Assembly: GCA_964527215.1 (NCBI GenBank)
Contig: CAZGNZ010000001.1
Location: 193,276-257,275 of the forward strand
Origin: an uncultured bacterium
GTDB lineage: Bacteria > Fidelibacterota > Marinisomatia > SCGC-AAA003-L08 > JACNLC01
Reading direction: 5' to 3'
DNA: 64,000 nt
Positions 2,386-63,201 of this stretch are shown one piece after another (the stretch's first letter is position 1; each line of letters begins with the position of its first letter). The notes beneath the pieces are model-generated. The model saw nothing but the letters and a program-made list of their open reading frames with translations, had not been told where the DNA came from and did not search any database. The position numbers and the translations under genes were made by a program.

Positions 2386-2432
2386 CCTAATGTCCTTTGC
2401 GGCGCAGGTTAAGTCCGTTATTCAGTAAGTTG

Positions 2433-2464
2433 AAAAAGCAGCCGGGCCGGAGCGACCCGACTGC
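2433..2464 (-). terminator. Rho-independent terminator-like hairpin plus T-run after the type-2 subunit gene of module A
   Basis: The minus strand reads GCAGTCGGG-tcgctccgg-CCCGGCTGC followed directly by TTTTT. The stem is 9 bp with one mismatch. It lies between the stop of 2523..4247 and the start of the downstream giant gene. Confidence 0.55.
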
Positions 2465-6314: not shown

Positions 6315-6779
6315 TTATCGGATCACCGCCAGAAACGTCACTTCCCGGGATTCGCCAGGAGCAAGAATATCCTGTATTTCCCATCGGATATGGGTGATGT
6401 CTTCAACGGGAGCCGGTTTCTCGACCACTTCACCGTTCTCATCGGTGACCAGTTTTACCGGCGGCCATTCCTGGAAATAATTGCCCTGGTCGAGCGAAAA
6501 TGTGATAACGGCCGGATCACCCGTCACGGATTGAGGCACATACACCACTCCCGGAGGAATGGGATCCACAATGGTGGGCTCACGCATTTCATCATCACCC
6601 ACATTGCTTGCTGTTATGATGTACCGCAGGGTATCCCCGGGAGAAAAAGTGAGTTCGCCGCCGCTGAGCTCCTGGGGGGTTTTATTCACTTTTTCCGGGG
6701 TGACGTCCAAATTCAGCAGAGGCCCCTGCTGTCCGAGCAGCCACCCAATACAAATGAAAAATATTATATAGTATCGCAT
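6315..6779 (-). CDS. Small secreted single-DUF11-domain protein (module A)
   Basis: The ORF runs 6315..6803. The preferred start is ATG 6779, preceded by GAGGAGG-tatc, giving the signal peptide MRYYIIFFICIGWLLGQQ. It has one DUF11-type unit (LTFSPGDTLRYIITASNVGDDEMREPTIVDPIPPGVVY...REVTFLAVIR). It is a paralog of 22986..23477. Confidence 0.82.
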   Translation of the reverse strand: MRYYIIFFICIGWLLGQQGPLLNLDVTPEKVNKTPQELSGGELTFSPGDTLRYIITASNVGDDEMREPTIVDPIPPGVVYVPQSVTGDPAVITFSLDQGNYFQEWPPVKLVTDENGEVVEKPAPVEDITHIRWEIQDILAPGESREVTFLAVIR

Positions 6780-6795
6780 GATACCTCCTCGTTCG

Positions 6796-11900: not shown

Positions 11901-12020
11901 ATGCAGTTTGGTTACATCACCCTCACGGGGCGACAGCATAATCACCTGACCGAACGTCATCCCAAGCAGCAGGAATGCTGCTGCAAATGAACGGATAATA
12001 TGGCCGGATCTGAACTGCAC
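8946..12020 (-). CDS. Predicted large outer-membrane beta-barrel protein with N-terminal soluble Ig-like region (usher/translocon-like; function unknown)
   Basis: 1024-aa ORF with signal peptide MQFRSGHIIRSFAAAFLLLGMTFGQ. The C-terminal ~650 aa is a continuous series of alternating-hydrophobicity strands separated by polar/G/D/N turns (e.g. LTFNLAFENTA, YQFGIAYRPD, LEFGVRAARRF, LGAGYIFNRYDD, RFYINFNVKF). It ends in an aromatic-rich tail (..FSETIFDWR). The GTG start overlaps the stop of the upstream giant gene (TAGTG at 12022..12018). Confidence 0.8.
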   Translation of the reverse strand: MQFRSGHIIRSFAAAFLLLGMTFGQVIMLSPREGDVTKLHRIAVTVAGKAGAAADLFINDEHAATGEFRIDGKLDFLNIPVPDGPVNVRVDAVGSRGRIFSVNRNMHILGPAHEVVSLEENLECVADGSSLKHVELEIRDAWGFRLDHLKIASVSITSGSIAEPDFDDMSAGHQLAIDSGILRVPIKAPVKPGTAVIEVNIDGLIQQFPIRFARPIEPLILTGFANGALMSNDDGFEDYELAGQDIVSRKGTILDGDHASLRGRTAFYARGTFLEEYRVTASFDSDRKKQNQLEDDDDPASQYSLYGDAGQIMYDVQTNSKLFVRVENDKAYAVLGDYRTDLQDTEFASYNRTLNGLYTQYKSGAFQVTGFGAETDRGMSLKRIRGEGISGFYYLGDTDITRFSDKVVLETRDKYHSEKVLDLQPMIRYHDYDIDYEDGTLFFKQPVPSIDENGNPVTIVVSYEMAHDGPQNLIGGMRIKGRISGIDLGTTLVAEEQEPGNYSLLGLDVRAPVNDWLTVRAELAASKHSDETDDNINGLAYKTEFIARPQDDLTLEGYYREVDSSFVNMSQNSGKSERDTRKYGVSASYKNMKKGTLNSEFWQEEKNPGLSAETTKRVFTLDYEKVLNSRGSFAVGFENAYRTSGDESSESSLLTGKYSHKLNDKLTGSLEYYQNLKSEDQSKPTSLLLGMGWEMTEKIRLFFKHRIIDSRSKPNETVFGFESKVRENTDFTGKYEMGGALGEDRAKATIGLRNKWTVRPDLTFNLAFENTATIDSFQTATQDHNAVSMAYEYLPEAPYKSSGKFEHRQDDTTVKKVFTFGGSMRLFQGFSGITRLEHSHTDYRKEVSEEVVKGRYQFGIAYRPDQHDLFTVLAKLEYATERNSHVNPDVRSDRLIFSTHGYYQPRQELEFGVRAARRFVLEEEGDLFDDENAVNYFGLRTEYDWTTRWSTALDLRLLNMDATNEWEFGNALEVNYLVYKNIQLGAGYIFNRYDDPDFSQLDQSLSRFYINFNVKFSETIFDWR

Positions 12021-15000
12021 TATTTCACTCGAATCTCGATTTCTGTCTGGTAATTCACTCTGAGTGCTCTGGTCCCTATCAGCGCCTGTATTTCCACAGG
12101 CAGAATAACAGTCCCGGGGACGCTTTTGCTTTGTCCTTTGAAACGGAACGTCCGTATTGGGTCAGTTCCGTCGATTAAAATTTCAGCCTGCATTTCCGAA
12201 AGCGGTTTTCCGCTCTCTGCAGTGAACAGGAACGTTTCATTCCCTGTCAGTTTCAGCAGTACCCGATCCGCTTTTTCAATCCGAGAGATATCTGCATTCA
12301 GGCGCAGCTCCATTTCCCCCCCGGAGTTGGCGTACATGGTCGGGACCGCTGCCGATTCCCGAAGAGAGCCGTCATGGAAGGTAATGACGGAATTTTCAGA
12401 TCTGCCGGGCATATGTTCTGCAGAATCTGAATTGTCCGGGACCGGAATCTGAAATTCAATAACGGCTTCTCCATTTGCTGACTGCGAGCTGAGGAACGTT
12501 ACCTGGATCCGACTTTCTGCCAGGTCCCGATCACGGGTAAGATAATGTGTGACCGCCTGGATTTTATCCCCCATTGAATCGGCTTCTTCATTATTTGCCG
12601 GTTGAATTCCCACAATTTTCAGATTCAGATGCTCCTGCCAATGGAGAAAATCAGCAATCCCATTCAAGACCTGCTTCGTTTCAGGATGCAAACTGGCGCC
12701 GGAAGAAAGGATGGATTCCGCGGAAAGGGCGGAAGTGAGGTAAATGTTTTCGATATATGCATGTGCAGCAGTGGACAGTTGACCGGATTCAAGATGTTCT
12801 GCATTCCGTACAAAAGCGGCAACGCTGTCCTCAGCTGATATTTTGTCCGGATCATTGATTTGAATGCTGTAGGAGAGGATCAGATCTGAATGTGATGAAA
12901 TAGCCGGAAGATTCCAGGATAGGGCGGCTGAACTGCCGGACGGCTCCGTGTTTTGACCGGCAATCCGTCCGGAACCGGCTGTGTATGCCCATCCTGAAGG
13001 CAGGTTTGCCGTGAACCGGTATCCTTCAAGTGAATCCCGTGCAGTGGTTTTGAAGACGGTTTCCAACTCAAGCACTGCTCTGGACAGATCGGTGCGCTGC
13101 GGTGAAGTGAACTTCAGTTCAATTCGCCGGTTTTGACGCCGGCCTTTACGGGTGCTGTTGTCCGCCACCGGTTCATCAGGCCCTTTGCCGTTGGTGCGGA
13201 TACGGCTTTCCGATATGCCCAAATCGCCGACCAGGAAACTCCGGATGTTTTCTGCTCTCGCCCGGGACAGTTCGTAGTTATCTGCAAATTCCAGCCGGCC
13301 GGATACGGGAACGCTGTCGGTGTGGCCGATAATTTCAAGTTTGACCCCCGGCTGCCAGTTCAAATACTGACCGATCCTGCGGACTTGATTTTGATCGGCT
13401 GCACTCAGACGGGCGCTGCCGGATTCGAAGTTGAAAAATGCAAAAATCTCAAGTGGATGGAACTGAACCGCCCGTACACCCGATGTCAGTGATTTCTGAC
13501 TTACTGTGAGGGGATCCGGCCGAATATCGGGACATGATCCGTCGGATGTGATCCCCTGAACCGGTACTTCCAGGAATCGGTGCATGACCGGATTCGTTTC
13601 CGGGAGACTGCTGCCGACACGGTTCAGGCGCAGTTTCAATCCGGCAATGATATCGTGCGCCTGCGGCTGCATTCGGCTGTCGCTGAAATACGGACCGTAC
13701 ATATGCAGAATCAGCCGGTTCCGTGCAATCCCGGCATCGGTCAGATACTCCTGAATCTGCATTCCGGCTGCCTGAGCAGCATCAGGGGATTCAGACAGAC
13801 TGCTGTCAGCAGGACAATGGATTTCGATGTCAATATCCAGTCCGGGTTCCCACTGCAGCAGCTCCGCAACCTGATTCAGCTGATCAACGGCTTCCTTCGA
13901 AAGCGTGCCAGTTCGGGAGTTCAAGGTGACGGTTTTCAGATACAGACCGTCTGCCCGAACGGCAAAGGGAGCTGTCAGTTCACCGGCTGCCAGACGGTAC
14001 CCAACGGTATTGGTGTATTCGAACCGGCCCGTGACGCTGCCATTGTCCGGAATGGGACCGATATCTGCCGGAACCAATTCACAGTTATAGGTCTGGTCAA
14101 CGGAATACTGCCACCCGCCAAGATTCCAGATCAGGCTGCGGTCATCGACTGCAATGTTCTCGAACGGTGCATCATTCAGTCGGGCGGAACCCTGCACGTA
14201 CCGGAAACCATTCGGAATGCTCATGATGAACCGCACATCTGCCAGCGGGTATTCGCTTGTGTATTCCGCCCGGGCTTGGATTCCCAGACTTTCAGGATTC
14301 TGCGGCCGGTGTTCCGGAGAACTGAATCTGAGTTCAATTCTACGGTTTGCGGCTCGTCCGGCAGATGCGGAATTGGCTGCCACCGGTTCATCAGGTCCCA
14401 TTCCCGCCGTATGCACGCGCTGCGGAGAAATCTGCCATCTGGAATCCAGATATCGCACAACAGCATTGGCCCGGGCGCGGGAAAGCTCATAATTGTCTTT
14501 AAACAACATCCCGAAGGACACCGGGACATTGTCCGTATGCCCGATCACATCAAGAACAACGAATTCCTGCATCCGCATGAAACTGCCGATCAGATCCACG
14601 GTCTCAAGATCGGTACTGTCCAGTACCGCGCTGCCGCTGTCAAAATTAAAATGGGTATCCATTTCAAACGGCTCAAACTCCTGCAGACGATAGCTGGGAT
14701 TGAGCACTTCCAGACTGATTTCAAGGGTGGGTATCTGACACAGCTCAAGTGATATGTCACCTGCAGCGGGTTCTTCAATGGGGAAATTGGCTTTTGCAAT
14801 GCCGCCGGGAGTTACTTTTGTCAACCGAGACCAGGGGTCGTTCATGAAATCCGTGGAATTGATGCGCACCACCGACCCTTCCGGGATGGTGTAACGGTTC
14901 AGGCGAATGACATGTTCACCCGGCTGCACATTTGGCACGGAGTATTTGCCGAATTCATCCGTAATGACCCTGATCCCGTTTTCCAGAATCAGCTCGACAT

Positions 15001-18000
15001 AGGGAAGAACTGCCTCACCGCTGTCATGGAGTCCGTTTTCATTTTCATCATAGAATACCTTGCCGAATATGAGTCCGTCCGTGAGCAGACCGTCGGGTTT
15101 TACCAAAACGGTTGCGGTTGCTACCGGGGAGGTTACCGGTGCGGATCCTCCCGGTGTTCCGCTGGCCCAGGCCTGGTTCTCGCAGTCTCCCGGACTTGAA
15201 TTCAATCCAATCACGGTGCGGAATTTCAGAACGGCCATCGAACCGGCAGTCAGGGATTCATTCAGTTCCCAAACCAGCTGCTGCTGCCGGCTGTTCAGTG
15301 CAGTAATCACCGGGTCAGCAATCCGGCTGCCGTCCAGGTAGGAACTTCCTTTTTTATATTTGAATCCGTTCGGGAGATGATCGGTGAGAGTCAGCTGGTG
15401 CAGGACGGTGCCAAAACTTTCATTTTGGGCTTCAAGGGTATAGGTAACGTAATCCCCATGGATTGCGGTTTGTCTGTTGGCGGTTTTTTCCAGCATCAGC
15501 ACCGGCGCGGAAACCTGGGTATCCGCATCGCTGCGCCCGTCCGCGGTGGTGCGAACGGTATCCAATCCGGAATACAGATAAGCGGTATTGACGATATATC
15601 CGCCGGTACTGAGTACATCCGAAGTGACCACGGCACTGAACCGTACGGAATCCATCTCTGCTTCCGAGAATTCCAGTGCATAAAATGTCAGGTCGTTCCG
15701 GACGGGATCGTATGAGTGATAGGTGATATCCTGAGGGTGCTCGATCGTATTCAGCAGCACTTCCAGACCGGTTGGCAATTCATCAACCAGCCAGGTGGTG
15801 TCTGCCACAGGGAATGATTCGGTGCCGAAGTGTATGGTATAGGTCAGCGTATCGCCCACAGCGGCATTTTCAATATCCACTTCCTTGTAGGTGGCCAGGG
15901 TGAGACGGTCCAGCCCGATATTGGCATTGATGACATAATAACCTTCGGTAAGGTCTTCCAGAACGATATTGCCCATACTGGCGTATTCTTCTTCACCATC
16001 ATACTGCACTTCCACTTCATAGGTGCCTTCATACAGCTGGGTAAATGCATAAAAGCCGGTTTCATCGGTGTACGTGGTATCTGTGAAACCCTCCTCAACA
16101 AATGACCGGTCCAGGCTGCGGCCGAGTGAGTCCGGCGGCGAACCGTTCAGGATAATGGGGATGCCGCCTTCCGCAATAATTTCGCCGGTTACCATATCAA
16201 TGATCCATCCGGAGATGGAAATCCAGTTGGTGATGATGATGTTTTCATTGAGGTCATCGTCGGATATGTCAATATCCTGGCCGACAGGGATGGGATCACC
16301 GTTGGGAGCCAAAATGGTGATGACGATGTAATATTCATCGGGATCTGTAATGGGTATCAGGTAATAGCCTTCGGTATCTGTCGTGTCTGCACCGACAAAA
16401 TCATCTCCGGAGTTATACACATCGACAATGGCACCCTGTATTGACACATCGCTGTAGTCAATCACCCATCCGGCTACGGCGCTGGGGTAGAAAGTTACAT
16501 CGGTTTCGGCGGTGTCATAGGTGGAGCTGCCGTAACGAACGGTCGCGGTGACATGCGAAATGACAGTCTCGTTGAGAACAATGCTGGATACAAGCTGCGA
16601 TGGGGCAATGCCATTATCCGTCTGCGTGGTAAGCAATGCCTCAGGAATGGTCCCTTCCGTCGCGGTGAAATCAACATCCACCGGTTTGTCCACGGGATTG
16701 CCAAGGAATGTATACACGGGAGCATACAGCAGCGCGCTGTTCAAGCCGTTACCCAGAATCCAGGGCGGTACGGCATAAAGCTCGATGGAAAGCGGCAGGA
16801 CATTTGTCGTTAGAGCGCTGGATTGGTCCGAACTGCCTTCAATGCAGGTGACAGAGGCGGTATTTTCAAATGTGGCTCCTTCGGGCAGCAGAACATCCAC
16901 CACGGTTTGGATGGTAAGTGTATGGGATGTCAGAGCGGGCATGTCGTCAAAGACCCAGGTCAAAACCTTGCTGAAATCGTCATATGCATAATCGCCGTCT
17001 GCGTCGTAAAGGGTCAGTTCCGGCGGCAGTGTGTCGTTCAGTGTTACCTGGGTAGCGGTATCCGAGCCGATATTATCCAGAATGAGCGTATAGATCAGTG
17101 TATCTCCGGGGAAGATTTCGATATCAGCTATTTTGGTCAGTTCCAGCTGCGGCGCGGAAACGACCAGAATTTCGGTTTCGTCAGACTGGTTTTCCAGTCC
17201 CGGGGCTGAACAGACGGCTCTGTTGGGAATCGCCGTTTCATTGGGGATTGGATTGGCGGTTTGGGCAGTAAGAAATAAGGTATCCGATGCTCCTGCGTAA
17301 AGCTGCGGAATATTCCAGGAAACCACATTGTCCTGCAGAGATGCTTCAGGGGTGGAATCCAGGAGTGTCAGCCAGTCTGAAAGGGTATCTGTCACCGTAA
17401 GGTTGTGGATGGTCAGGAATTCAGGATTGGCGATGATAATCTCGTAGGTCACCGAATCACCTGCATCAAAAATATCTCCGTCTGCCTGTTTCCGGATGTC
17501 CAGAACGGGCAGATGCATGGGGATATCCGCATTGATCAGCCAGACGGCTTCGGGCAGATCAGCAGCAGGCATTTCGCCAATCTGAATGAACTCCAGTTCA
17601 TTCTGGGGATCCATGACGGCCTGAAGCCGATAAGTACCGGCAGACAGCCCGTTGAAGGCGTATTTTCCGTTTTCATCCGTGTAAGTGGAATCAGTCCGTA
17701 TATCGTCAGACATGAGATAAATACGGATGTCGCCTACCGTGATTGGCACACCGGTGGCCAGGTTTGTCACAGAACCGGAAATGGTGCTGTGATTCAGAAT
17801 CTGTGACTGTCCTATTCCAGACATCATATCAACTGCAACCGTATTCACAGAACCGGTGCTGCGGCCGAAATGGTCTTCTGCAGTGCCGATTACGGTATAT
17901 TCTCCGGATTCCGTTACCGGCAGCAGGTACATCCCGTCAGCATCCGTCTGATCAGACCAGCGCAGCAGAGAGTCCCAGTCACGCAGTTCAGTTTGCGCGG

Positions 18001-19282
18001 CTACCACGGGCACATTGGTACTGTGGTCCATGATCCGCCCGGCGACGGCCAGGGGGTAAAAATGAACCAGAGTCTGATCCGAGATATTGTCAGGCGGTTC
18101 AGTGCCGGTTTGTACGGTGGCCGTTATTTCTGCAGTTATGATTTCATCCGTACTGACTGCAGATGTCAGAATTTCTGACACAATCCCGTCTTCCGTCGAT
18201 AAGGTTACCACAGTGGCTTCATTGGACCAGATTCCGGCAGTTGTCTCGAGTTCCACCTGAGTACCGTCCGGTACCGGCAGTCCCCAGAAACTGGTCACAC
18301 TGGCCGTAATCAGAGAAGCGGATTGTCCGTCTGCCGGGATCATATCCGGATTCGGAGTCACCGCAATGTGATACGGAGAATCTGCAGGGTTGAGAATCGT
18401 TTCAGCAGCGGCATGGAGTTCAGTACCGGTGTCATCGGTCAGCACTGCCTGGTTTTCAATCAGAGCATCTATTGGATATGAACCGGCTGCTTCAGCCGTT
18501 AGCACAAGTTCAATATCCGAACCAGGCAGAAGTGAACCCAATTCCCAGGTAATGAATTGGCCGTTTTGAAATCCGTTTGGAATAGAAGACAAATAGGTGA
18601 GTTCATCCGGCAGGATATCCGTTATCACTGTTCCGGATGTTGGATATGGACTGTTGTTTTCTATATAAATAGTATAGGTGAGGACATCCGAGTCGTAGGC
18701 AAAATCAGTATTGACAGTTTTGGAAAATTCGTAATTCACATCAGGATACTGGTCTATAACAACAATTGTGGTATCAGAAACAAAGGGTATGGTTCCGGCA
18801 GCAGAAACTGCCAGGTTGGAGATCTGAGTTCCAACAGGTGTCTCGGGATGTATGACAACGCGCAGGGTGAATTGGAGGATTTCTCCGGATTGAAAATTCG
18901 AGAAATTCCATATAACAACATTGTTTTGCATTGATGCAGGGGGACTTGAATCCAGAAAACCGACTGCGGCATTGAGGGTATCTGTAATGACCCCTTCCGG
19001 TATCGGAAAAATGCCGTTGTTTTCAGCTGTTATGGTATAGACAATCGTATCACCGGGAGCTGCTGACTGCTCGTCAGCGCTTTTTTGCAGCAGGATGTCA
19101 GGGACTGCAACATCAGTGATGACCGTATTGGTACTGTCACTGAACAGCGCACCGCCGGCATCCAGGAATTCTGCAAATGCCCGATTGGATATTTCCTGTC
19201 CGGATACGGATGTAATCAGGCTGAGCAAACCAGCCAGAACCGCACCAAAGCAATGGATCATGCTGCGAATGGATATTCTCAT
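12020..19282 (-). CDS. Giant (2420 aa) multi-domain envelope protein: DUF11 repeats, Big-like, CarboxypepD_reg-like and SdrD-B-like units plus four internal OmpA-like domains
   Basis: Single uninterrupted ORF with signal peptide MRISIRSMIHCFGAVLAGLLSLITSVSGQ. It has many PGDT(I/L).Y.I...N.G DUF11 units. Two canonical OmpA/MotB peptidoglycan-binding domains are present: FNFDSGSAVL...GHTDNVP...NYELSRARANAV...NRRIELRF at ~14320..14655, and FNFESGSARL...GHTDSVP...NYELSRARAENI...NRRIELKF at ~13105..13440. Each is followed by a DUF11-like unit and a degenerate OmpA-like unit lacking those motifs (~13640..13930 and ~12485..12712). Confidence 0.92.
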   Translation of the reverse strand: MRISIRSMIHCFGAVLAGLLSLITSVSGQEISNRAFAEFLDAGGALFSDSTNTVITDVAVPDILLQKSADEQSAAPGDTIVYTITAENNGIFPIPEGVITDTLNAAVGFLDSSPPASMQNNVVIWNFSNFQSGEILQFTLRVVIHPETPVGTQISNLAVSAAGTIPFVSDTTIVVIDQYPDVNYEFSKTVNTDFAYDSDVLTYTIYIENNSPYPTSGTVITDILPDELTYLSSIPNGFQNGQFITWELGSLLPGSDIELVLTAEAAGSYPIDALIENQAVLTDDTGTELHAAAETILNPADSPYHIAVTPNPDMIPADGQSASLITASVTSFWGLPVPDGTQVELETTAGIWSNEATVVTLSTEDGIVSEILTSAVSTDEIITAEITATVQTGTEPPDNISDQTLVHFYPLAVAGRIMDHSTNVPVVAAQTELRDWDSLLRWSDQTDADGMYLLPVTESGEYTVIGTAEDHFGRSTGSVNTVAVDMMSGIGQSQILNHSTISGSVTNLATGVPITVGDIRIYLMSDDIRTDSTYTDENGKYAFNGLSAGTYRLQAVMDPQNELEFIQIGEMPAADLPEAVWLINADIPMHLPVLDIRKQADGDIFDAGDSVTYEIIIANPEFLTIHNLTVTDTLSDWLTLLDSTPEASLQDNVVSWNIPQLYAGASDTLFLTAQTANPIPNETAIPNRAVCSAPGLENQSDETEILVVSAPQLELTKIADIEIFPGDTLIYTLILDNIGSDTATQVTLNDTLPPELTLYDADGDYAYDDFSKVLTWVFDDMPALTSHTLTIQTVVDVLLPEGATFENTASVTCIEGSSDQSSALTTNVLPLSIELYAVPPWILGNGLNSALLYAPVYTFLGNPVDKPVDVDFTATEGTIPEALLTTQTDNGIAPSQLVSSIVLNETVISHVTATVRYGSSTYDTAETDVTFYPSAVAGWVIDYSDVSIQGAIVDVYNSGDDFVGADTTDTEGYYLIPITDPDEYYIVITILAPNGDPIPVGQDIDISDDDLNENIIITNWISISGWIIDMVTGEIIAEGGIPIILNGSPPDSLGRSLDRSFVEEGFTDTTYTDETGFYAFTQLYEGTYEVEVQYDGEEEYASMGNIVLEDLTEGYYVINANIGLDRLTLATYKEVDIENAAVGDTLTYTIHFGTESFPVADTTWLVDELPTGLEVLLNTIEHPQDITYHSYDPVRNDLTFYALEFSEAEMDSVRFSAVVTSDVLSTGGYIVNTAYLYSGLDTVRTTADGRSDADTQVSAPVLMLEKTANRQTAIHGDYVTYTLEAQNESFGTVLHQLTLTDHLPNGFKYKKGSSYLDGSRIADPVITALNSRQQQLVWELNESLTAGSMAVLKFRTVIGLNSSPGDCENQAWASGTPGGSAPVTSPVATATVLVKPDGLLTDGLIFGKVFYDENENGLHDSGEAVLPYVELILENGIRVITDEFGKYSVPNVQPGEHVIRLNRYTIPEGSVVRINSTDFMNDPWSRLTKVTPGGIAKANFPIEEPAAGDISLELCQIPTLEISLEVLNPSYRLQEFEPFEMDTHFNFDSGSAVLDSTDLETVDLIGSFMRMQEFVVLDVIGHTDNVPVSFGMLFKDNYELSRARANAVVRYLDSRWQISPQRVHTAGMGPDEPVAANSASAGRAANRRIELRFSSPEHRPQNPESLGIQARAEYTSEYPLADVRFIMSIPNGFRYVQGSARLNDAPFENIAVDDRSLIWNLGGWQYSVDQTYNCELVPADIGPIPDNGSVTGRFEYTNTVGYRLAAGELTAPFAVRADGLYLKTVTLNSRTGTLSKEAVDQLNQVAELLQWEPGLDIDIEIHCPADSSLSESPDAAQAAGMQIQEYLTDAGIARNRLILHMYGPYFSDSRMQPQAHDIIAGLKLRLNRVGSSLPETNPVMHRFLEVPVQGITSDGSCPDIRPDPLTVSQKSLTSGVRAVQFHPLEIFAFFNFESGSARLSAADQNQVRRIGQYLNWQPGVKLEIIGHTDSVPVSGRLEFADNYELSRARAENIRSFLVGDLGISESRIRTNGKGPDEPVADNSTRKGRRQNRRIELKFTSPQRTDLSRAVLELETVFKTTARDSLEGYRFTANLPSGWAYTAGSGRIAGQNTEPSGSSAALSWNLPAISSHSDLILSYSIQINDPDKISAEDSVAAFVRNAEHLESGQLSTAAHAYIENIYLTSALSAESILSSGASLHPETKQVLNGIADFLHWQEHLNLKIVGIQPANNEEADSMGDKIQAVTHYLTRDRDLAESRIQVTFLSSQSANGEAVIEFQIPVPDNSDSAEHMPGRSENSVITFHDGSLRESAAVPTMYANSGGEMELRLNADISRIEKADRVLLKLTGNETFLFTAESGKPLSEMQAEILIDGTDPIRTFRFKGQSKSVPGTVILPVEIQALIGTRALRVNYQTEIEIRVK

Positions 19283-19318
19283 ATATGCCGGAGATTCATC
19301 AAAACTGAATTCTTGAAT

Positions 19319-19352
19319 ACCGGGTGGACTGGAAAAAATCCGCCCACCCGGT
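19319..19352 (-). promoter_or_regulatory. Strong intercistronic stem-loop between the type-2 subunit gene and the giant gene of module B
   Basis: ACCGGGTGG-(16 nt loop)-CCACCCGGT, a perfect 9-bp GC-rich stem. No T-run follows on the minus strand, so it is not a canonical terminator. Its position matches that of the 2433..2464 terminator in module A. Confidence 0.45.
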
Positions 19353-19405
19353 AATAACCAAGAAAATAAAGACAGTTTCAGTTTCGATGACTCAAGTCAC
19401 CGATC

Positions 19406-21127
19406 TTAGTCGATGGTTACCTGGAAAGTAACGTACGTCGAACCGCCAGCGCCCAGAGAAGGAATCGTGAACTGAGCGGTATTATTGGAGAACGTACCGC
19501 TGTCACCGTCGGCAGCATCGGTTTTGGCAACCCCTGCCAGTGACAGAGAACCGGCAACGTAAGTGGTGTTGGCCGGAATCGGATCGGTGATTACAACCTG
19601 AGTGGCCTGACCGGTTCCGATGTTCATGATATCTACCTGATAAGTCAGGACCGTTCCCGGAGGCTGGGGACCTTCCGGAGTCACGGATTTGACCAGGGAC
19701 AATGAAGGTGCGGTCACGGTCACAACCATTTCACCGGAATCACTGACAGCAGGATTACCGACGGAAGTTGCGGTGACAGAAATGACTTCTTCCGTGCCGT
19801 CGTTCGTACCGGCAGGAACGGTTGTCAGCGCGATAATGCACACCGTTTCATCGGCTGCAAGGGACCCCAGATCAATGATACCGTCATTGTTGGTGTCGGT
19901 TAACAAGATGTCATCCGGATCAATGGTACCGTTGCCGTTGAAATCCCAGTAGAAAGTCCACAGCCAGAAATTGCTGACATACGAAATGTTAAATATATCG
20001 TCGCCGTTACCGTCATTGGTGAAACAGAGACTGTATGTCACTTCATCACCCGGATCAGCGAATGCCAGATCATCATCGCCTGCGGTCACGCCGTAAACCT
20101 GTCCCACAACCATTGGTCCGCCGGTAATTTCTTCCGGAGGAAGCGGTGAACCTTCAGGATTTTCAGTTTCAACCGTGACATCAACCGGAATGGTTGTGCC
20201 TTCGGGCACGCCGTCATTCACAACTACCTGATAGAAAACACAGTATTCTTCCTGAGGTGCGATATCACCGAGAAAGAAAGTCGCAGAGTTGGCATTGGTG
20301 ACATTGAAGTCGCCTGCAAATTCAACCGGATATTCCACACCGTCGTCAGCATCCGTCAGAGGATTGGAATTGGGATAGTCATTGCTGGTGTAGAAAGCCA
20401 TGGTTTCAGGTGCATAGGTTGTATTGTCCGGAATGAATCCGATCAGTGAAGTATTGAAGCCAATCGCTGAACCGGTATTTTCCGTACATACCGAAATAGT
20501 GACGGTACCGCCGGGAAGCGGATTTTCATCATCCAGCGTGATTTCAGTTTCCATTACCGCTGTTGAGACGGTCGTGGTCAGGTTTGAGCTGTCGGATACC
20601 TGATCATCAAACTGGGAAACAGCCGTTACCGCAGTCTGAATCACGGTGCCGTTGTCAGCTCCGCCGTCGGTGGTATCTGTGATTTTGATGATGATGTCCA
20701 GTGACTCATCCGCGGCAAGGAGGCCGGTATCCGTGATAATGGCATCGTTGCCGTCGATAATACCGTTGCCGTTTTCATCCAGATAGATTTCCACATCAAA
20801 TTCGCCTGCACCCGTAATCTGCGAGATTTGACTCAGATCGAATACATCATCTCCGTTACCGGTATTCACCACATCCATGGGATACAGTTTAACACCGCCG
20901 GCTGCGATGTTTGAGGATGTCTGGTCCGGAATGAGATCCACACCGGCAACCTGACTGACGATTGTGGTGACAACATTGGAAGTTACCTGCGCCAGGGAGT
21001 TTCCGTTGGCGTCTTTATAGTTGCCGTAAGCAACGTTGGTGATGCTGGTACCGGCAGGCGTACCGGCTGCAAAGACCAAACTCATGGCCAGTGCTGTGAC
21101 GATTAATATAATTGAATTTCTTTTCAT
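19406..21127 (-). CDS. Secreted multi-domain DUF11 protein, 'type 2' subunit (module B)
   Basis: 573-aa ORF with signal peptide MKRNSIILIVTALAMSLVFAAG and GGAG upstream of the ATG. TPAGTSITNVAYGNYKDANGN... is collinear with 2523..4247 over the full length. The C-terminus is ...GSTYVTFQVTID. Confidence 0.88.
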   Translation of the reverse strand: MKRNSIILIVTALAMSLVFAAGTPAGTSITNVAYGNYKDANGNSLAQVTSNVVTTIVSQVAGVDLIPDQTSSNIAAGGVKLYPMDVVNTGNGDDVFDLSQISQITGAGEFDVEIYLDENGNGIIDGNDAIITDTGLLAADESLDIIIKITDTTDGGADNGTVIQTAVTAVSQFDDQVSDSSNLTTTVSTAVMETEITLDDENPLPGGTVTISVCTENTGSAIGFNTSLIGFIPDNTTYAPETMAFYTSNDYPNSNPLTDADDGVEYPVEFAGDFNVTNANSATFFLGDIAPQEEYCVFYQVVVNDGVPEGTTIPVDVTVETENPEGSPLPPEEITGGPMVVGQVYGVTAGDDDLAFADPGDEVTYSLCFTNDGNGDDIFNISYVSNFWLWTFYWDFNGNGTIDPDDILLTDTNNDGIIDLGSLAADETVCIIALTTVPAGTNDGTEEVISVTATSVGNPAVSDSGEMVVTVTAPSLSLVKSVTPEGPQPPGTVLTYQVDIMNIGTGQATQVVITDPIPANTTYVAGSLSLAGVAKTDAADGDSGTFSNNTAQFTIPSLGAGGSTYVTFQVTID

Positions 21128-21140
21128 TGCTCCAGTTTCC

Positions 21141-22868
21141 TTAGTTAATGACTACTTGAAAGGTTATGTATGTTGACCCGCCGGGGCCCATTGTCGGGAT
21201 TTGAAACTCCACCTGATTGCTGGAAAAAGTTCCGCTGTCTCCGTCGGCGGCATCTGTTTTGGCAACCCCGGCTACAGTCATACTGCCCGATATGTAAGTG
21301 GTGTGGGCAGGAACTGCGTCCGTAATGACCACGTCGGTTGCCTGACCTGTACCGGCATTCAGAACATCTACTCTGTATGTCAGCACAGTTCCGGGAGGCT
21401 GTTCTCCTTCCGGTGTCACGGATTTGTTAAGACTCAGAATTGGGGCCGTTACGGTGGTCGTAATGGTACCCGAGTCTGAAACAGTGTCGTCAAAAACGGA
21501 TGTTGCCGTTACCGTCATCACATCCACCGTCCCGTCATTGGTGCCGGCCGGGATGGCACTGGTGCCGATAATGCAGACCGTTTCGTCCTGATCCAGAGTA
21601 CCCAGATCGATAACACCGTCGGAATTGGTGTCTGTCAGCTCGGTATCGTCCGGATCGATGTTTCCGTTTCCGTTTGAATCAAAATAGAAAGTCCAGGACC
21701 AGAAGTTGCTGACATATGAAATGTTGAATACGTCTTCACCGTTTCCTGTGTTGGTGAAACAGATACTGTACGTCACTTCATCACCAGGATCAGCGACTGC
21801 GGTATCATCATCACCCGCTTCGACTCCGGCGAACTGATCAACAATGGAAGGATCACCATGATAGGTACCCGGTGGGTAGGGTGTCCCCTCGCCGTTTTCA
21901 AATGTCACATCTACTTCCGGCTGGATGGTGGTTCCGGCAGGTGTGCCGTCAACAACCACAACCTGATAGAAAACACAGCCTTCATCCATCGGAGCGGCAT
22001 CTCCCCAAACAACTGTGACCAGATCCGCATTGGTAACATTGAAATCACCTTCTGTGGCCGGGGGGTATTCCACCCCGTCATCTGCATCAGTCAGAGGATT
22101 GGCATTGGCAAACTCATCCGTCGGATAGTAACCGAGAGTACCCGGTACATATGTTGTATTTTCCGGGATTTCTCCGATGAAGGTGAGGTCGTAGGAGGTT
22201 GCAGACCCCGTGTTTTCAAAGCAGACTGAATATGTGATTGTCTCACCCGGCAGCGGACTGACGTCACTTGGCGTGACGGTGACATCCAGCACTGAAGCGG
22301 CCACGGTGTGATCCGTATCTGCCGTGTCAGTTACCGTGTCATCAAACTCTGATACGGCCGTGATCACCGAAGCGACATTGGCACCGTCAGGTGCTCCGCC
22401 GTTCGTGATATCCGTGATCAGGTATATCAGATCAAGCTCTTCATCAGCCGCCATCTCGGGGGTGATGGCAATCGGGGCGTCCAATCCGTCAATAACACCG
22501 TTTCCATTTATATCGTGATACAGTTCCACTGTAAAGGAAGCATCACCGGTAATGGTGGTGTTCACGGAAAGGGTGAACTGGTCGTTGCAGTTTCCAGTGT
22601 TTGTCAATGTCAGGGATGACAAATGAGTTGACTGGGTCGGGATGGTGTTTGACAGCAATGCAGGATGCAGGTCAACACCGGCGACCTGACTGACCGTCGT
22701 AGTAACCGTGTTGGATGTAACCTGGGCCAGGGAATTGCCGTTGGCATCCTTGTAATCCCCATAGGCTACATTTGTGATGGTTGTTCCGCAGGGGGTCCCG
22801 GCACCGAATGCCGTCGACCACAGCAGAACTGTCATCAATATTCCAGTATTAAAGCGTAGTAGCTTCAC
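21141..22868 (-). CDS. Secreted multi-domain DUF11 protein, 'type 1' subunit (module B)
   Basis: The ORF track gives 21141..22976. I place the start at GTG 22868, because AGAAAGGAGACAGTT precedes it (same RBS and spacing as paralog 4258..5985). This gives VKLLRFNTGILMTVLLWSTAFGAG. It shares the type-1 Cys pattern (GTPCGT, NTGNCND). Confidence 0.85.
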   Translation of the reverse strand: MKLLRFNTGILMTVLLWSTAFGAGTPCGTTITNVAYGDYKDANGNSLAQVTSNTVTTTVSQVAGVDLHPALLSNTIPTQSTHLSSLTLTNTGNCNDQFTLSVNTTITGDASFTVELYHDINGNGVIDGLDAPIAITPEMAADEELDLIYLITDITNGGAPDGANVASVITAVSEFDDTVTDTADTDHTVAASVLDVTVTPSDVSPLPGETITYSVCFENTGSATSYDLTFIGEIPENTTYVPGTLGYYPTDEFANANPLTDADDGVEYPPATEGDFNVTNADLVTVVWGDAAPMDEGCVFYQVVVVDGTPAGTTIQPEVDVTFENGEGTPYPPGTYHGDPSIVDQFAGVEAGDDDTAVADPGDEVTYSICFTNTGNGEDVFNISYVSNFWSWTFYFDSNGNGNIDPDDTELTDTNSDGVIDLGTLDQDETVCIIGTSAIPAGTNDGTVDVMTVTATSVFDDTVSDSGTITTTVTAPILSLNKSVTPEGEQPPGTVLTYRVDVLNAGTGQATDVVITDAVPAHTTYISGSMTVAGVAKTDAADGDSGTFSSNQVEFQIPTMGPGGSTYITFQVVIN

Positions 22869-22985
22869 AACTGTCTCCTTTCTTCTATCTTCTTGGTTTT
22901 TCGCATCTAATTGCGAGTGCCCGCAGTGTTTACGGCGGACATTGGTTTTTCTGAAGTTTTGTATTTTGGTTAACATTGATATTCT

Positions 22986-23477
22986 CTATTTAATGACTGC
23001 CAGAAATGTGTACTCACGTGATTCTCCCGGTTCCAGATCGGACAGAATCTGCCAGCGAATATGCGTGACGTCCTTTGCCTCTGCCGGTATTTCGACGGGA
23101 TTTCCGTTCTCATCAAGCTTGATTTTTGTTGGTGGCCATTCCTGAAATCTGCTGCCGTCGATACTGAAAGTGACGTCAGCATCATCAAAGGAGGCGGTTT
23201 CGGCGATGTACGCCACACCTTCCGGCAGAGGATCCACCACAGCCGCTTCAGTCATCAGCGCATCACCGATATTGGCTGCAGAAATCGTGTAGCGCAGTGT
23301 GTCCCCAGGTGAAAATGTGAGTTCGCCGCTTTCCTGCTCCTGCGGCGTTTTGCTGAGTTTTTCAGGGGTTATCTGAATGGATAATTCCGGCTGCGCAAGC
23401 AGCAGGCCCATGCAGACTGTCAGCAGTATTGGGAATTGAATTGTTTTCACTGGTTGCTCCATTGTAGGTATTGTCAT
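22986..23477 (-). CDS. Small secreted single-DUF11-domain protein (module B)
   Basis: 163-aa ORF with a hydrophobic N-terminus (FPILLTVCMGLLLAQP). LTFSPGDTLRYTISAANIGDALMTEAAVVDPLPEGVAY...REYTFLAVIK is paralogous to 6315..6779. ATGA start/stop overlap with the upstream gene. The exact start (23477 or 23462) is uncertain. Confidence 0.8.
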   Translation of the reverse strand: MTIPTMEQPVKTIQFPILLTVCMGLLLAQPELSIQITPEKLSKTPQEQESGELTFSPGDTLRYTISAANIGDALMTEAAVVDPLPEGVAYIAETASFDDADVTFSIDGSRFQEWPPTKIKLDENGNPVEIPAEAKDVTHIRWQILSDLEPGESREYTFLAVIK

Positions 23478-26029
23478 TGAATAATAACTTTAAATTCAAC
23501 TGTTTGTGATTCACCATCCAGTAACGGTACTGTCCGCATGAACTGCAGATGCGTGATGTTTTCGTTTTCATTGCCTGAGTATGTAAAACCGCCGTCGGCG
23601 CTGTAGGTGACGGTCATGTATTCACCGGCCGAGGATCCGGGCAGATAATGGGTGTTTTCCGGAATGCTTTCATGGATGAGAACCAGGCTGGCATAGTCAT
23701 CGCCGATATTGCTGTAATGGATGGTATAATTAAGGGTATCTCCCGGCACCGCAAGCTCATGATCCACTTCCTTGATCAGGGTCAGAAGGGGACCGAGCAC
23801 CTGCACCGGTGCCGTTGATCCCGTAGTAACCGGATCGAAATTGTCTCCGTCTGCCTGTGCCGAATTGGTGTAGGTTCCGCGATCCAGACCGACATTCACG
23901 TTGAATGACAAATAGCCGGGATCGGGTGCGCTGCTGCTGAGATTCCAGCTGCCCGACCATGTCAGAACATTATCCGATATTGTCGGATCATCACTGGTCA
24001 GACCTGATGAGGTCCCGGGAACATAGGAGAATTGTACCGGCAGGATGTCCGCGATTTCCGTGACATTGGCTGTTCCGGTGCCAATATTTTGAACCGCAAT
24101 GGTGTATGCCATTACGGAACCGGAACTGATGGAGTCCGCTGCCGCCGTCTTTTGTATATAAATCTGCGGATCAGATGATATCAGGGTTTCTACCGGATCA
24201 CTGATGAGGAATTCTGAATCCGATTCAAGGAAGGCAGTGTTGATGATGACCGAACTGTCCGGCAGACCGTCGGCAGTTTCCACCGTCAGAGTAACAGTGC
24301 CCGGAGTATCGGGAGCTACCTCACCCAGCAGCCAGGTGACGGTGTGAAGCCCGATGTCGTAAAAGCCGTTATCGCTGGCGCTGACAAAGCTGACATCGTT
24401 TGAGAGTGTATCCGTGACAACGACATTCTGCGCCCGGTCGGATCCCTCGTTGGAAAACTGCAGTGCATACTCGATGGAAGCCCCCGGTTCACTGAGCGCC
24501 GGTCCCGATTTATTGATGAACATTGATGCCGCGGAGGATATCTCGGTTTCAGCAGACCCTTCGCCTGCAGCCCCCTCGAAGGATATCAGCTCGACTTCGT
24601 TTTGGATGACTGTTCCGTCCGGAATAACCGCGTCGGTCTGAACGGTTAGAACCAGCTGAACTGTTTCTCCGGCCTCTATGGAGCTGATCGTCCAGGTGAC
24701 CTCATGACTGCCGCTGCTGTAGGATCCATTGTCCGATGCGCTGACAAACTGCAGATAATCAGACAGTTCATCAGTCACGACGATACCGGTGCCAACTGCG
24801 CTTCCGAAGTTGGTGATGGTAACCGCATAGGTAATTTCTTCACCGGCATCTGCACTGGGCGGGGCACTTTTCGCAACCCAAAATGCGGGCATGGCATTGA
24901 TGGACGTGGTGGTGTAGTCGGAGTCAGTGACATCCTCACTGCAGGTGATTTCCGCAGTATTGGTGATCAGTGTTCCATCCGAAACAAACGGGGAAATGCC
25001 CACTGTCAGGGTCAGGGTGTCGATTTCTCCAGGCTGCAGCGTACCGACAGACCAGGAAATCTCCTCCGACCAGACATCGTAACTTCCATTGTGGGATGCT
25101 GAGATGAAATAGGTTTCAAACGGCAGGTGATCTGTTACAACCACATTTGTGGCCGCGTCGTTTCCGATATTCGAAATCACCAGCTGATAATCCAGATGGC
25201 AGATGTCGCCGTTCCAGTCGTCGTCGTCATCATCGTCATCATCGTCGTCATCGTCGTCACCCCAGCCGCCGTCATCTCCGCCATAATCCGGGTCCCAGTC
25301 ATCAAGATCACCCAGATAGCAGTCGCAGTCGCTGTAGGGGATGTCATCATCATCGTCATCGTCGTCATCCCCGCCTTCATCGTCGTCATCATCATCCCCG
25401 CCTTCATCATCGTCATCGTCGTCGTCACCCCATCCGTCGTCATTGTCCCCGCCTTCGAAATCAAAATCATCTGATCCGCCGCTGCAGACATTGAGAAACA
25501 ACTCTGAAAGTTTGTCTATCACCAGCACCGGATCAGATTCCACTGTGGTAAGGCAGGTCGCGGATTCGCTGAGTCCGCTGTCTCCGACTGCCAGAATTTC
25601 ATTGCTCAGTTCCGTATTGTTCTGCAGCGGGGATGCAACCTGGGTCACAATCGTTAGAGTATCTGAGGAAAGAGGAAGCAGTTCATTGAAATTCCAACTG
25701 ACTGAATGGGTTTGAGAATCATAACTGCCGCCGGTGGAATTGATGTAAGTCACATCAAGCGGCAGCAGGTCAGACATCAGCACGCCGGCAGCGGACTCAT
25801 CGCACGGATTTGTGAGTGTCACCGTGTAATTCAGGTATTCTCCGGCTTCCACGGATTCCGGAGCGGTCACAGCGAGTGAAACGTGACAGTCAGGATTCTC
25901 GGAAAACAGGAATTTGACAGACAATAGCAGCACCGCTGCCGCAATAAACAGGCGGATGGCCGAGCGCTTTGAGGCGTTCGAGCCGTCGAATGAAAACGGG
26001 GAATCAGTTTGCGGTTTCAAGTGGTGCAT
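23474..26029 (-). CDS. Secreted multi-DUF11 protein with an internal poly-Asp insert (variable 'head' protein of module B)
   Basis: The ORF track gives 23474..26152. I prefer ATG 26029 (MHHLKPQTD...AIRLFIAAAVLLLSVKFLF), because the longer version overlaps the upstream gene by 107 nt. It has at least six DUF11-type units (e.g. AGEEITYAVTITNFGSAVGTGIVVTDELSDYLQFVS). The C-terminal ~220 aa is homologous to 6796..8286. Confidence 0.85.
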   Translation of the reverse strand: MHHLKPQTDSPFSFDGSNASKRSAIRLFIAAAVLLLSVKFLFSENPDCHVSLAVTAPESVEAGEYLNYTVTLTNPCDESAAGVLMSDLLPLDVTYINSTGGSYDSQTHSVSWNFNELLPLSSDTLTIVTQVASPLQNNTELSNEILAVGDSGLSESATCLTTVESDPVLVIDKLSELFLNVCSGGSDDFDFEGGDNDDGWGDDDDDDDEGGDDDDDDEGGDDDDDDDDDIPYSDCDCYLGDLDDWDPDYGGDDGGWGDDDDDDDDDDDDDDWNGDICHLDYQLVISNIGNDAATNVVVTDHLPFETYFISASHNGSYDVWSEEISWSVGTLQPGEIDTLTLTVGISPFVSDGTLITNTAEITCSEDVTDSDYTTTSINAMPAFWVAKSAPPSADAGEEITYAVTITNFGSAVGTGIVVTDELSDYLQFVSASDNGSYSSGSHEVTWTISSIEAGETVQLVLTVQTDAVIPDGTVIQNEVELISFEGAAGEGSAETEISSAASMFINKSGPALSEPGASIEYALQFSNEGSDRAQNVVVTDTLSNDVSFVSASDNGFYDIGLHTVTWLLGEVAPDTPGTVTLTVETADGLPDSSVIINTAFLESDSEFLISDPVETLISSDPQIYIQKTAAADSISSGSVMAYTIAVQNIGTGTANVTEIADILPVQFSYVPGTSSGLTSDDPTISDNVLTWSGSWNLSSSAPDPGYLSFNVNVGLDRGTYTNSAQADGDNFDPVTTGSTAPVQVLGPLLTLIKEVDHELAVPGDTLNYTIHYSNIGDDYASLVLIHESIPENTHYLPGSSAGEYMTVTYSADGGFTYSGNENENITHLQFMRTVPLLDGESQTVEFKVIIQ
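25215..25475 (-). repeat. Low-complexity GAY-codon tract encoding a ~85-aa poly-Asp/Gly/Trp insert
   Basis: It encodes GGSDDFDFEGGDNDDGWGDDDDDDDEGGDDDDDDEGGDDDDDDDDDIPYSDCDCYLGDLDDWDPDYGGDDGGWGDDDDDDDDDDDDDDWNGD inside one DUF11 unit. The + strand shows runs of gtcgtc/atcatc. Confidence 0.9.
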
Positions 26030-26045
26030 TCTGTCTGTGAATTCG

Positions 26046-26411
26046 TCAGCCGGCAAGACTTTTTGTGGATTGAGATTTGTTGATTGCAGCAAGTTCTTCC
26101 AGGCGATACGGAATTGTCGCAGTGTTGAAATCACCAGAACGAATGGTTTCAATCACATCAAGCAATTCATCATTTGCCATAAGCACCAGCTGTAACTTTC
26201 GATGAAACTTGTTGATGTATTTCACGAGGGCAAAATCACGCAGCGTTGAAACCATCAGGAGTACGGTATGAACAGATCGTGATTCAAGAATCTGGATCGC
26301 TTTTTCCAAATTGTCAGCCTCATAAACGGTGTCCGCCAGTGACATCGCCATCATTCCGTCCAGAATGCTGCTGCTGGCAAAACGACTGTGAGAAACAATT
26401 AAAACACCCAT
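26046..26411 (-). CDS. Degenerate (pseudo-)receiver-domain protein, first gene of module B
   Basis: 121-aa ORF with GGAG 5 nt upstream of the ATG. It has a CheY-like alternating pattern (VLIVSHS...TVLLMVST...LQLVLMAND...). By-eye alignment to CheY puts SH at the acidic pair, M/V at the phospho-Asp, A at the conserved T/S, and no conserved Lys. Confidence 0.6.
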   Translation of the reverse strand: MGVLIVSHSRFASSSILDGMMAMSLADTVYEADNLEKAIQILESRSVHTVLLMVSTLRDFALVKYINKFHRKLQLVLMANDELLDVIETIRSGDFNTATIPYRLEELAAINKSQSTKSLAG

Positions 26412-35129: not shown

Positions 35130-35185
35130 TTGTTCCCCTTTGGTTATTTTAATCTATAGACAGAAAAAATATTGAACACAGCCAT

Positions 35186-58338: not shown

Positions 58339-58351
58339 ACGAAAGCAGGAT

Positions 58352-62954: not shown

Positions 62955-63201
62955 GATACTTCCTGTACTGTTTAATATAATGAAAGGGCTGCGGCAGAAG
63001 GCGAGGGTTCAGCAGCAGTAAACGATATCGTGTTGAACAGGCGGAACGGATAAATGTTATGGAAGCCCGGAACCAATACAGATTCAACCATCTATGAATC
63101 ACTCTGTCAGCGCATGGAATTCGGTTTCAGGATGAAATTGCCGCAGTATTTATAGACCAACTGCATTCATGGATATTATTGAAATGGGAGAGAGGGTGTA
63201 G

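Follow-up and report, generated by a model that had tools for sequence, protein, structure and literature searches.

A CLIPPER domain divided between the two ends of a secreted shaft subunit, and the surface fibre it may build, in an uncultured Fidelibacterota bacterium

Four shaft paralogs and their conserved ends

We analysed a stretch of 64,000 nucleotides (the window; contig CAZGNZ010000001.1, positions 193,276 to 257,275, assembly GCA_964527215.1) from an uncultured bacterium of the Fidelibacterota. The window holds two gene cassettes, modules A and B, each with two paralogous genes for secreted proteins that we call shaft subunits. The four open reading frames predicted in the initial annotation, which had been made from the letters of the sequence, were all present, on the minus strand, and encode secreted proteins of 573–575 amino acids (aa). 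They are named here by module and type (B1 and A1, type 1; B2 and A2, type 2), and their coordinates, with those of the other features, are collected in Table 1. From the sequence we consider it likely that these subunits polymerise head to tail, by complementation of a split domain, into a surface fibre that is probably locked by isopeptide bonds.

B1 served as the reference. Its start codon is GTG; the open reading frame extends to an ATG at 22976, and the database form (P0001) has 575 aa. Its landmarks are a signal peptide (residues 1–22), Cys27, Asn33, Cys94, Lys482 and Asp517. Signal peptides of the AxA type precede the mature chains, and conservation begins right at the predicted mature N-terminus. 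Pairwise identity was 65% for B1-A1, 62% for both B2-A2 and B1-B2, and 55–61% for the remaining pairs, a similarity far above chance (E down to 1e-238 in the database). Alignment reproduced the type motifs noted earlier, GTPCGT and NTGNC(N/D)D in B1 and A1 and GTPAGT and NTGNG(D/T)D in B2 and A2, together with a post-signal block common to all four paralogs and four common cysteines (C216, C298, C370 and C432 in B1 numbering).

Both ends of the subunits had been described as near-invariant. This holds for the N-terminal block, which is 76–89% identical between pairs, but it overstates the C-terminal domain, at 63–74%; several positions of the quoted C-terminal pattern are broken in one paralog (e.g. 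PAHTTY in B1). The C-terminal match to DUF11 does terminate at the stop codon in all four paralogs, as had been noted. The pattern of conserved ends and a variable middle extended to the whole family. Among 154 distinct shaft homologs, the set used for conservation, triad and cysteine counts throughout, mean column conservation was 0.77 in the N-terminal block, 0.62 in the C-terminal domain and 0.49–0.56 in the middle, which consists of three domains (D1–D3). The family is a large set of secreted proteins of 540–620 aa from Marinimicrobia/Fidelibacterota and many other diderm phyla, labelled in the sources solely as 'DUF11 domain-containing' or 'TIGR01451 repeat' proteins; NCBIfam has no model specific to it.

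The two ends as parts of one CLIPPER domain

The DUF11 family (PF01345), now renamed CLIPPER, has been shown to form an intramolecular isopeptide bond within a CnaA-like immunoglobulin (Ig) domain (Costa et al., Protein Sci 2025, PMC12617251). Its crystal structure (9IFR) has the lysine in the first strand (K715), the asparagine in a late strand (N806) and a catalytic aspartate (D748) (PMC12617251). All four paralogs matched PF01345 with 34–42 bits (cutoff 24.6), and TIGR01451 matched as well. The PF01345 match covered profile positions 2 to 82–84 of 114 and halted at the stop codon (..TFQVxI[DN]-stop) in every case, and no shaft paralog holds a complete CLIPPER domain, a nine-strand CnaA-like sandwich, within its one polypeptide. 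The truncated C-terminal part of B1 amounts to about two thirds of the fold and holds K482 and D517.

In two neighbouring proteins, of 892 aa and 2420 aa, the complete CLIPPER domains run beyond the point at which the shaft subunits stop, for example ..LTVQTD AVIPDGTVIQNEVEL..ETEISS. The mature N-terminus of the shaft subunits, AGTPxGTxITNVAYG..SNxVxTxV, corresponds to that continuation residue for residue, with the Asn 11 residues past the junction in both. We refer to the N-terminal block (N-block) as the donor and to the truncated C-terminal domain as the acceptor. On a local profile built from eight complete CLIPPER domains of these two neighbours, the B1 C-terminus scored 33.7 bits alone and 48.3 bits with its mature N-block appended (+14.6 bits, z about 8), as compared with a mean of 35.2 bits (standard deviation 1.6, maximum 43.3) for 500 shuffles of the N-block. 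Every combination of donor and acceptor among the four paralogs (16/16) gained 10–15 bits on this profile. When 22 diverse acceptor-donor chimeras were aligned with complete domains by hhalign (99.2% probability, E 2e-19), no gap fell over the junction, and the K, the D and the donor Asn paired with the K, the D and the invariant Asn of the complete domains. The chimeras have a K-to-D spacing of 35 and a K-to-N spacing of 104, the latter including a 14-residue insertion; the crystallised CLIPPER domain has 33 and 91 (PMC12617251).

Co-variation, which like the D2 counts below was measured in 182 homologs, pointed to the same pairing. When long-range pairs involving the N-block were ranked by strength, 22 of the top 50 had their partner in the C-terminal domain, at a distance of more than 400 residues, and no other segment of equal size exceeded 10 (0/288); a cluster joins N-block columns 13–15 with acceptor columns 517–524. 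We conclude that the two subunit ends are, at the level of sequence, two parts of one split CLIPPER domain whose missing last third stands at the mature N-terminus. The ends would be the most conserved parts of the subunit because together they form one domain.

The isopeptide triad N33/K482/D517, whose residues sit on the two separate halves, is intact in 149/154 shaft homologs. D2, an internal CLIPPER domain, offers a comparison. It has its own K/D/N triad in 95/182 homologs and has lost it in 87/182; in the clade of this window the C216/C298 pair stands in place of the triad. Triad and cysteine pair are near-exclusive (94 triad only, 38 cysteines only, 1 both, 49 neither; Fisher p 8e-14), a pattern in D2 (B1 residues about 194–345) that resembles an evolutionary swap of an isopeptide bond for a disulfide. 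Since the D2 triad is often lost and the split-domain triad is kept, selection appears to retain the triad specifically where two molecules would join. The joint is probably locked by a Lys-Asn isopeptide bond without a sortase.

A head-to-tail joint could also be made without a covalent bond, with the triad as a relic or a packing stabiliser only. Great stability does not require covalent links, as chaperone-usher and type V pili show, and five of the 154 homologs have Ala or Thr for the donor Asn with Lys and Asp retained. A non-covalent joint nonetheless seems improbable to us, given that 97% of split domains, over many phyla, retain the triad whereas about half of the homologs have lost that of D2 (with a disulfide instead in the window's clade), and that spacing and alignment agree with the experimentally shown CLIPPER bond.

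Subunit types, cassette and proposed fibre

The initial annotation had dated the split between type 1 and type 2 before the module duplication, and this is most likely correct for the bulk of the genes. Informative amino-acid sites divide 33 : 17 : 8 between groupings by type, by module and across both. Cys27 and Cys94 occur in 3/154 homologs (B1, A1 and P0003), always together; the ancestral state is Ala or Gly, as in type 2. P0003 belongs to a third module, L083, found in a relative, where it adjoins the type-2-like P0005, again type 1 then type 2. Because P0003 is closest to A1 (70%) and P0005 to A2 (69%), in the same order, the type split would be older than the modules. The N-terminal block, however, follows the module: its informative sites divide 0:5:0, and donor blocks are 89% identical within a module versus 78–80% within a type. 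In the L083 shaft pair the donor blocks are not homogenised. Recent gene conversion was considered as the cause of the module pattern and rejected, the same-codon fraction among identical residues (32–52%) being that of the rest of the genes. Acceptor changes compensating module-specific or type-specific donor residues were looked for, and none was convincing.

The pairing of the two types, which the initial annotation had noted in both modules, did not generalise: 59/62 loci from other species have a single shaft gene, the very situation that the annotation had named as a refutation. Two other tandem shaft pairs, in L085 (86% identity) and L086 (66%), have a separate origin. The comparison marks the type-1/type-2 pair as a lineage-specific elaboration and not a system requirement, with type 2 resembling the ancestral single shaft subunit and type 1 a recent derivative in which Cys27 and Cys94 were acquired. 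Co-variation links the N-terminal tail to D1 columns near Cys94, and the two cysteines probably form a disulfide that would staple the tail to D1. The reading of the shared cysteines as disulfides is supported by perfect co-occurrence, C216 with C298 (D2) in 36/36 and C370 with C432 (D3) in 6/6. The proposal of one disulfide per Ig-like domain fits D2 and D3, with one pair each, but neither the extra type-1 pair, which would link the tail to D1, nor the split terminal domain, which has no cysteine and has the isopeptide triad instead.

We asked whether the shaft of this lineage might be obligately two-component, with types 1 and 2 both needed, either alternating or with type 1 as a tip-side adaptor. 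This would explain why a pair is retained in each module, in the order type 1 then type 2, 10–13 nucleotides apart, in modules A, B and L083, and the types do differ chiefly in domain 1 and in Cys27/Cys94. Against it stand the single shaft gene in 59 of the 62 loci of other species, the equivalence of the donors and acceptors of both types (cross combinations score alike), the greater likeness of donors between types within a module than within a type across modules, and the failure to find compensating type-specific acceptor changes. We regard it as unlikely. If the fibre model is right, the type pair would be a small testable case of shaft diversification, with a stapled and an unstapled joint and a disulfide replacing the isopeptide bond in D2.

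Cassette order was the same in 31/31 loci with enough flank: tip, ~165-aa protein, shaft, anchor, ~1,030-aa protein. The cassette was found in Marinimicrobia/Fidelibacterota, Lentisphaerota, Acidobacteriota, Desulfobacterota, Latescibacterota, Gemmatimonadota, Ignavibacteriales and others; one cultured bacterium that has it is Oligosphaera ethanolica DSM 24202 (L074). Tips are variable proteins without a donor, whose last domain spans the acceptor profile from end to end and runs up to the stop codon. The shaft subunit carries both donor and acceptor. Anchors (1,600–2,400 aa) have a donor block right after the signal peptide, followed by CLIPPER repeats and OmpA domains, and no terminal acceptor. 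As tips lack a donor and anchors lack a terminal acceptor, neither could be completed in cis. The triad residues are conserved on the expected sides, with K in 45/51 and D/E in 49/51 tips and the donor Asn ~90% conserved among 47 anchors.

Natural shaft-anchor fusions bear on the same question. In P0165 (2,130 aa) and P0184 (3,188 aa, with an OmpA domain at the end), the segment just after the acceptor completes it (..TVTFRTTID NLSLGATVSNTAF.. and ..TVTFRTTID NLSLGATVSNTAFVGY..), and the protein's own N-terminal donor stays free. The representative search yielded mostly giant multi-repeat adhesins and was of use for fusions only. In acidobacterial shaft subunits of ~310 aa a single domain separates donor from acceptor (L076). 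Another variant, P0201, is a '1.5x' shaft subunit of 825 aa with a complete internal domain. Taken together, the cassette, the natural fusions and the short subunits favour pairing in trans over pairing in cis. Head-to-tail polymerisation, which had been proposed on the ground of the conserved termini, is the best-supported reading, with the split CLIPPER domain as its structural basis and the trans pairing of the halves as what we infer from these patterns.

The AlphaFold model of full-length B1 had a mean predicted local distance difference test (pLDDT) score of 82.7 and a predicted template-modelling (pTM) score of 0.47; for B1 without the C-terminal domain these were 92.6 and 0.74, a rise compatible with a monomer model unable to place the acceptor domain. 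Closure in cis, in which the subunit's own N-terminus would complete its own C-terminal domain to give a monomeric surface adhesin or envelope protein and no fibre, predicts the co-variation of N-block and C-terminal domain equally well and agrees with a confident N-block in the full-length model, but we hold it to be very unlikely, as every cassette has acceptor-only tips and donor-only anchors, P0165 and P0184 serve the acceptor with a downstream segment and leave the N-terminal donor over, the ~310-aa acidobacterial subunits leave little fold-back room, and the pTM rise from 0.47 to 0.74 is expected if the monomer model cannot place the C-terminal domain. Fold searches with both models returned only generic Ig-like rods (integrin legs, PrgB, antigen I/II, RTX repeats, BcpA). 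Searches of PDB sequences with the family profile, the chimera profile and the 1024-aa protein gave no match, nor was the CLIPPER crystal entry retrieved.

Several observations weigh against a fibre joined in trans and locked covalently. Co-variation does not separate cis from trans. Appending the N-block to the C-terminus lowered the PF01345 score from 38.9 to 35.9 bits (shuffled control 37.1); only DUF7619 (17.7 to 27.4 bits) and, slightly, DUF7927 improved. In truncated B1 the N-block kept a pLDDT of 90–91, without the expected drop in confidence, so that the model needs no acceptor to place it; this comparison does not discriminate, probably because the hairpin has packing contacts with domain 1 too, much like those of the D2 end with D3. 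The window's two anchors fit the donor profile weakly (6.9 bits; chimera z 3.8). The ~165-aa protein is acceptor-like yet has no clear place in the scheme, and the five homologs lacking the donor Asn belong here as well.

In the model that we favour, the subunit would be a rod of Ig-like domains ending in a CLIPPER domain that the stop codon cuts at about two thirds; the two last strands, which include the isopeptide Asn, lie instead at the mature N-terminus, right where the signal peptide is cleaved off. A subunit would complete its neighbour's C-terminal domain with its N-terminal hairpin and so build a continuous Ig-like chain. Asn33 would be brought beside Lys482 and Asp517 for an autocatalytic Lys-Asn isopeptide bond that needs no sortase. 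Acceptor-only proteins (892 aa and 496 aa, possibly also the 163- and 162-aa proteins as caps) would terminate the chain distally, and the donor-only giant with its OmpA domains would tie it to the cell wall. The outer-membrane component is likely to be the ~1,030-aa protein. As types 1 and 2 keep the same donor and acceptor, both could enter the same fibre. Sequence analysis shows the split, its colinearity with complete domains, conservation, co-variation, the cassette and the fusions; pairing in trans, the covalent bond, the disulfide, the path over the outer membrane and the part played by type 1 are inferred.

Table 1. Features of the two cassettes in the window (positions are those of the 64,000-nucleotide stretch)
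Feature	Position	Strand	Details
B1, type-1 shaft subunit, module B	21141..22868	-	575 aa; identical to database protein P0001
B1 donor block	22677..22802	-	mature residues 23-64, AGTPCGTTITN33VAYG...; predicted from profile gain, hhalign and co-variation
B1 acceptor, truncated CLIPPER/DUF11	21144..21455	-	residues 472-575 with Lys482 and Asp517, ends at stop; PF01345 profile 2-82 of 114
B2, type-2 shaft subunit, module B	19406..21127	-	573 aa; Asn31, Lys480, Asp515
B2 donor block	20942-21067	-	
B2 acceptor	19409-19720	-	
A1, type-1 shaft subunit, module A	4258..5985	-	575 aa
A1 donor block	5794-5919	-	
A1 acceptor	4261-4572	-	
A2, type-2 shaft subunit, module A	2523..4247	-	574 aa
A2 donor block	4062-4187	-	
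A2 acceptor	2526-2837	-	
Module B tip candidate	23474..26152	-	892 aa, six CLIPPER domains; the last (785-892) matches acceptor profile 2-104 and ends at stop
Module A tip candidate	6796..8286	-	496 aa, DUF6923 repeat region and two CLIPPER domains, of which the second is an acceptor that runs to the stop
Module B small protein	22986..23477	-	163 aa, one acceptor-like truncated CLIPPER domain with insertion, end ..TFLAVIK-stop
Module A small protein	6315..6803	-	162 aa, paralog of 22986-23477
Module B anchor	12020..19282	-	2420 aa; CLIPPER repeats and OmpA-like peptidoglycan-binding domains at 14327-14665 and 13115-13429
Module B anchor donor block	19097-19198	-	mature N-terminus, QEISNRAFAEF..TNTVITDV; chimera z 3.8
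Module A anchor, N-terminal part	1..2421	-	leaves the window; donor block about 2212-2322 after signal peptide (..QLVNRAYVLYMDAN..TNTVITDIS)
Conserved ~1,030-aa protein	8946..12020	-	1024 aa, putative outer-membrane beta-barrel
RNA hairpin, module B, gap between type-2 gene and anchor gene	19283..19405	-	-53.8 kcal/mol, z -7.7
Terminator-like hairpin, module A, gap between type-2 gene and anchor gene	2438..2464	-	12-bp GC-rich stem, then U run

The tip candidate of module B lacks an N-terminal donor block. When the chimera test with the local profile was applied to tips and small proteins, the local alignments stopped at an internal insertion; the shaft-derived acceptor profile aligned end to end with the tip C-termini. 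Between its first two CLIPPER domains the 892-aa tip has a highly acidic low-complexity insert of ~100 residues (about 25208–25510, minus strand), with Asp runs and Gly, Glu and Trp, which may bind cations. The ~165-aa secreted protein lies on the tip side of the shaft in every cassette (about 75 homologs in the fetched loci) and has an inserted hairpin (..ITFSIDGG..THIRW..); its Asp is conserved in ~90% and its first-strand Lys in ~70%. It is possibly a chain cap, a length control or a donor chaperone.

The last gene of the cassette always encodes the ~1,030-aa protein, which in five loci from several phyla (L017, L020, L033, L074 and L076) is fused to the anchor C-terminus, an arrangement that recalls an autotransporter barrel of very large size. 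The protein lacks transmembrane helices and Cys, carries a signal peptide and a highly conserved C-terminus (..NFYVTLHMKF.., ..NFYVTLHMKFSE.IFNW[KR]), and matched nothing in Pfam, NCBIfam or PDB sequences. From these features a barrel in the outer membrane is a reasonable, putative assignment.

A hairpin 3' of the second shaft gene, present in both modules, is expected if shaft is made in excess over anchor; these hairpins may set the shaft-to-anchor ratio by partial termination or by stabilising the messenger RNA. Directly upstream of module B lie genes for a sigma-54-type response regulator (26994–28376) and a PAS histidine kinase (28377–29882), both on the minus strand, and PAS kinase/regulator genes also flank the cassette in L003 and L085; the cassette may have dedicated regulation.

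Other observations concern the paralogs and the rest of the window. In domains 1 and 3 of all four paralogs, D-x-N/D-G-N/D-G-x-I-D loops (B1 residues 119–130, 397–408 and 413–423) resemble calcium-binding loops, and the homolog P0098 has an EF-hand_5 match in Pfam. Two C25 (gingipain-family) peptidases and a GH43-like protein carry a type I dockerin at the C-terminal end (43826–47374, 58328–61225 and 53193–56105, plus strand); none of these genes has an evident link to the fibre cassette. A stretch of low GC content (34001–36000; 0.36 versus about 0.50) overlaps an M13 peptidase gene (33822–35129), and a transfer-messenger RNA gene lies at 63199–63556 on the minus strand (Rfam RF00023, 181 bits).

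Comparison with known systems

If the model is correct, covalent self-ligating fibres would join the surface structures of Gram-negative bacteria; to our knowledge, covalent pili have so far been tied to the sortases of Gram-positive bacteria. The widespread 'DUF11 repeat proteins' and a family-less outer-membrane protein would gain a function in abundant, mostly uncultured marine and sediment phyla, and the conserved subunit ends would have a simple explanation. Our literature search found no account of this cassette or of a naturally split CLIPPER domain polymerising in diderms, most subscription journals being outside its reach. A 'tafi' paper that came up as a DUF11 lead had matched through DUF1102 only and is unrelated.

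The nearest relative is the CLIPPER domain itself, which belongs to the same family, has the same Lys/Asp/Asn triad with matching spacing, and occurs in stalks of Gram-negative surface proteins (PMC12617251). Here, in contrast, the domain is divided over the polypeptide ends, with the stop in the loop before the Asn strand, and the predicted bond would join two molecules and not two strands of one. The CLIPPER paper describes intramolecular bonds only and does not mention truncated or split domains (PMC12617251).

Chaperone-usher pili (Fim, Pap) resemble the predicted fibre in that an incomplete Ig-like fold is filled by a neighbour's N-terminal extension, here as judged from sequence. They likewise have an acceptor-only tip, a last subunit that ends the chain, a large outer-membrane protein in the operon and a hairpin after the major subunit gene. 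However, the cassette proteins gave no Pfam or NCBIfam match to a PapD-like chaperone or a FimD-like usher. Here the donor spans ~40 residues in a hairpin of two strands, the 575-aa subunit strings four to five domains into a rod instead of having one, a covalent lock is predicted and the anchor has OmpA domains. Type V pili (FimA/Mfa1), which also use strand complementation, have a lipobox Cys and an N-terminal strand released by a protease; no lipobox was found in the cassette proteins, whose signal peptides are of another type (AxA). Autotransporter-like anchoring was considered as well, and what bears on it is the fusion of the ~1,030-aa protein to the anchor C-terminus in five loci, the barrel being putative.

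Sortase pili (SpaA, BcpA, Spy0128) share a chain of multi-domain Ig-like pilins with isopeptide-domain folds and disulfides, and the covalent link that is predicted here; BcpA and antigen I/II C-domains were among the fold matches. They differ in their C-terminal membrane anchor and pilin-motif transpeptidation, both missing here, and in their hosts, which here are diderm. No cassette protein has a C-terminal LPXTG sorting signal (a single internal LPxT[GAN] occurs, in the 2420-aa protein), and the link would form autocatalytically inside the reconstituted domain.

Strand insertion followed by an isopeptide lock without a sortase, as predicted here, has been described before. In BsaA of Clostridium perfringens, donor-strand insertion precedes an intermolecular isopeptide bond (bioRxiv 10.1101/2024.11.04.621531), and in archaeal threads the N-terminal amine is bonded to an Asn of subunit n-2 (PMC9715654). 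These 'exchange and lock' fibres have unrelated folds (TasA-like; thread subunit) and different bonds, Gram-positive or archaeal hosts, and no outer-membrane component.

Engineered tags offer a further parallel. Isopeptag/pilin-C, SpyTag/SpyCatcher and SnoopTag/SnoopCatcher each consist of an isopeptide domain divided into one large piece and one short strand, which re-associate and ligate spontaneously; all of them were engineered in the laboratory, starting from intramolecular domains in adhesins of Gram-positive bacteria. The split here would be natural, with both halves in each subunit and polymers as the product, and it could supply protein engineering with natural orthogonal tag/catcher pairs of CnaA-like fold. 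Strand insertion with an isopeptide lock, strand complementation, covalent shafts and engineered split domains are thus each already known. Tentatively, we suggest that their combination may define an unrecognised class of diderm pilus, in which split-domain subunits would ligate themselves outside the cell with no sortase, chaperone or usher, served by a family-less ~1,030-aa outer-membrane protein and anchored through OmpA domains to peptidoglycan.

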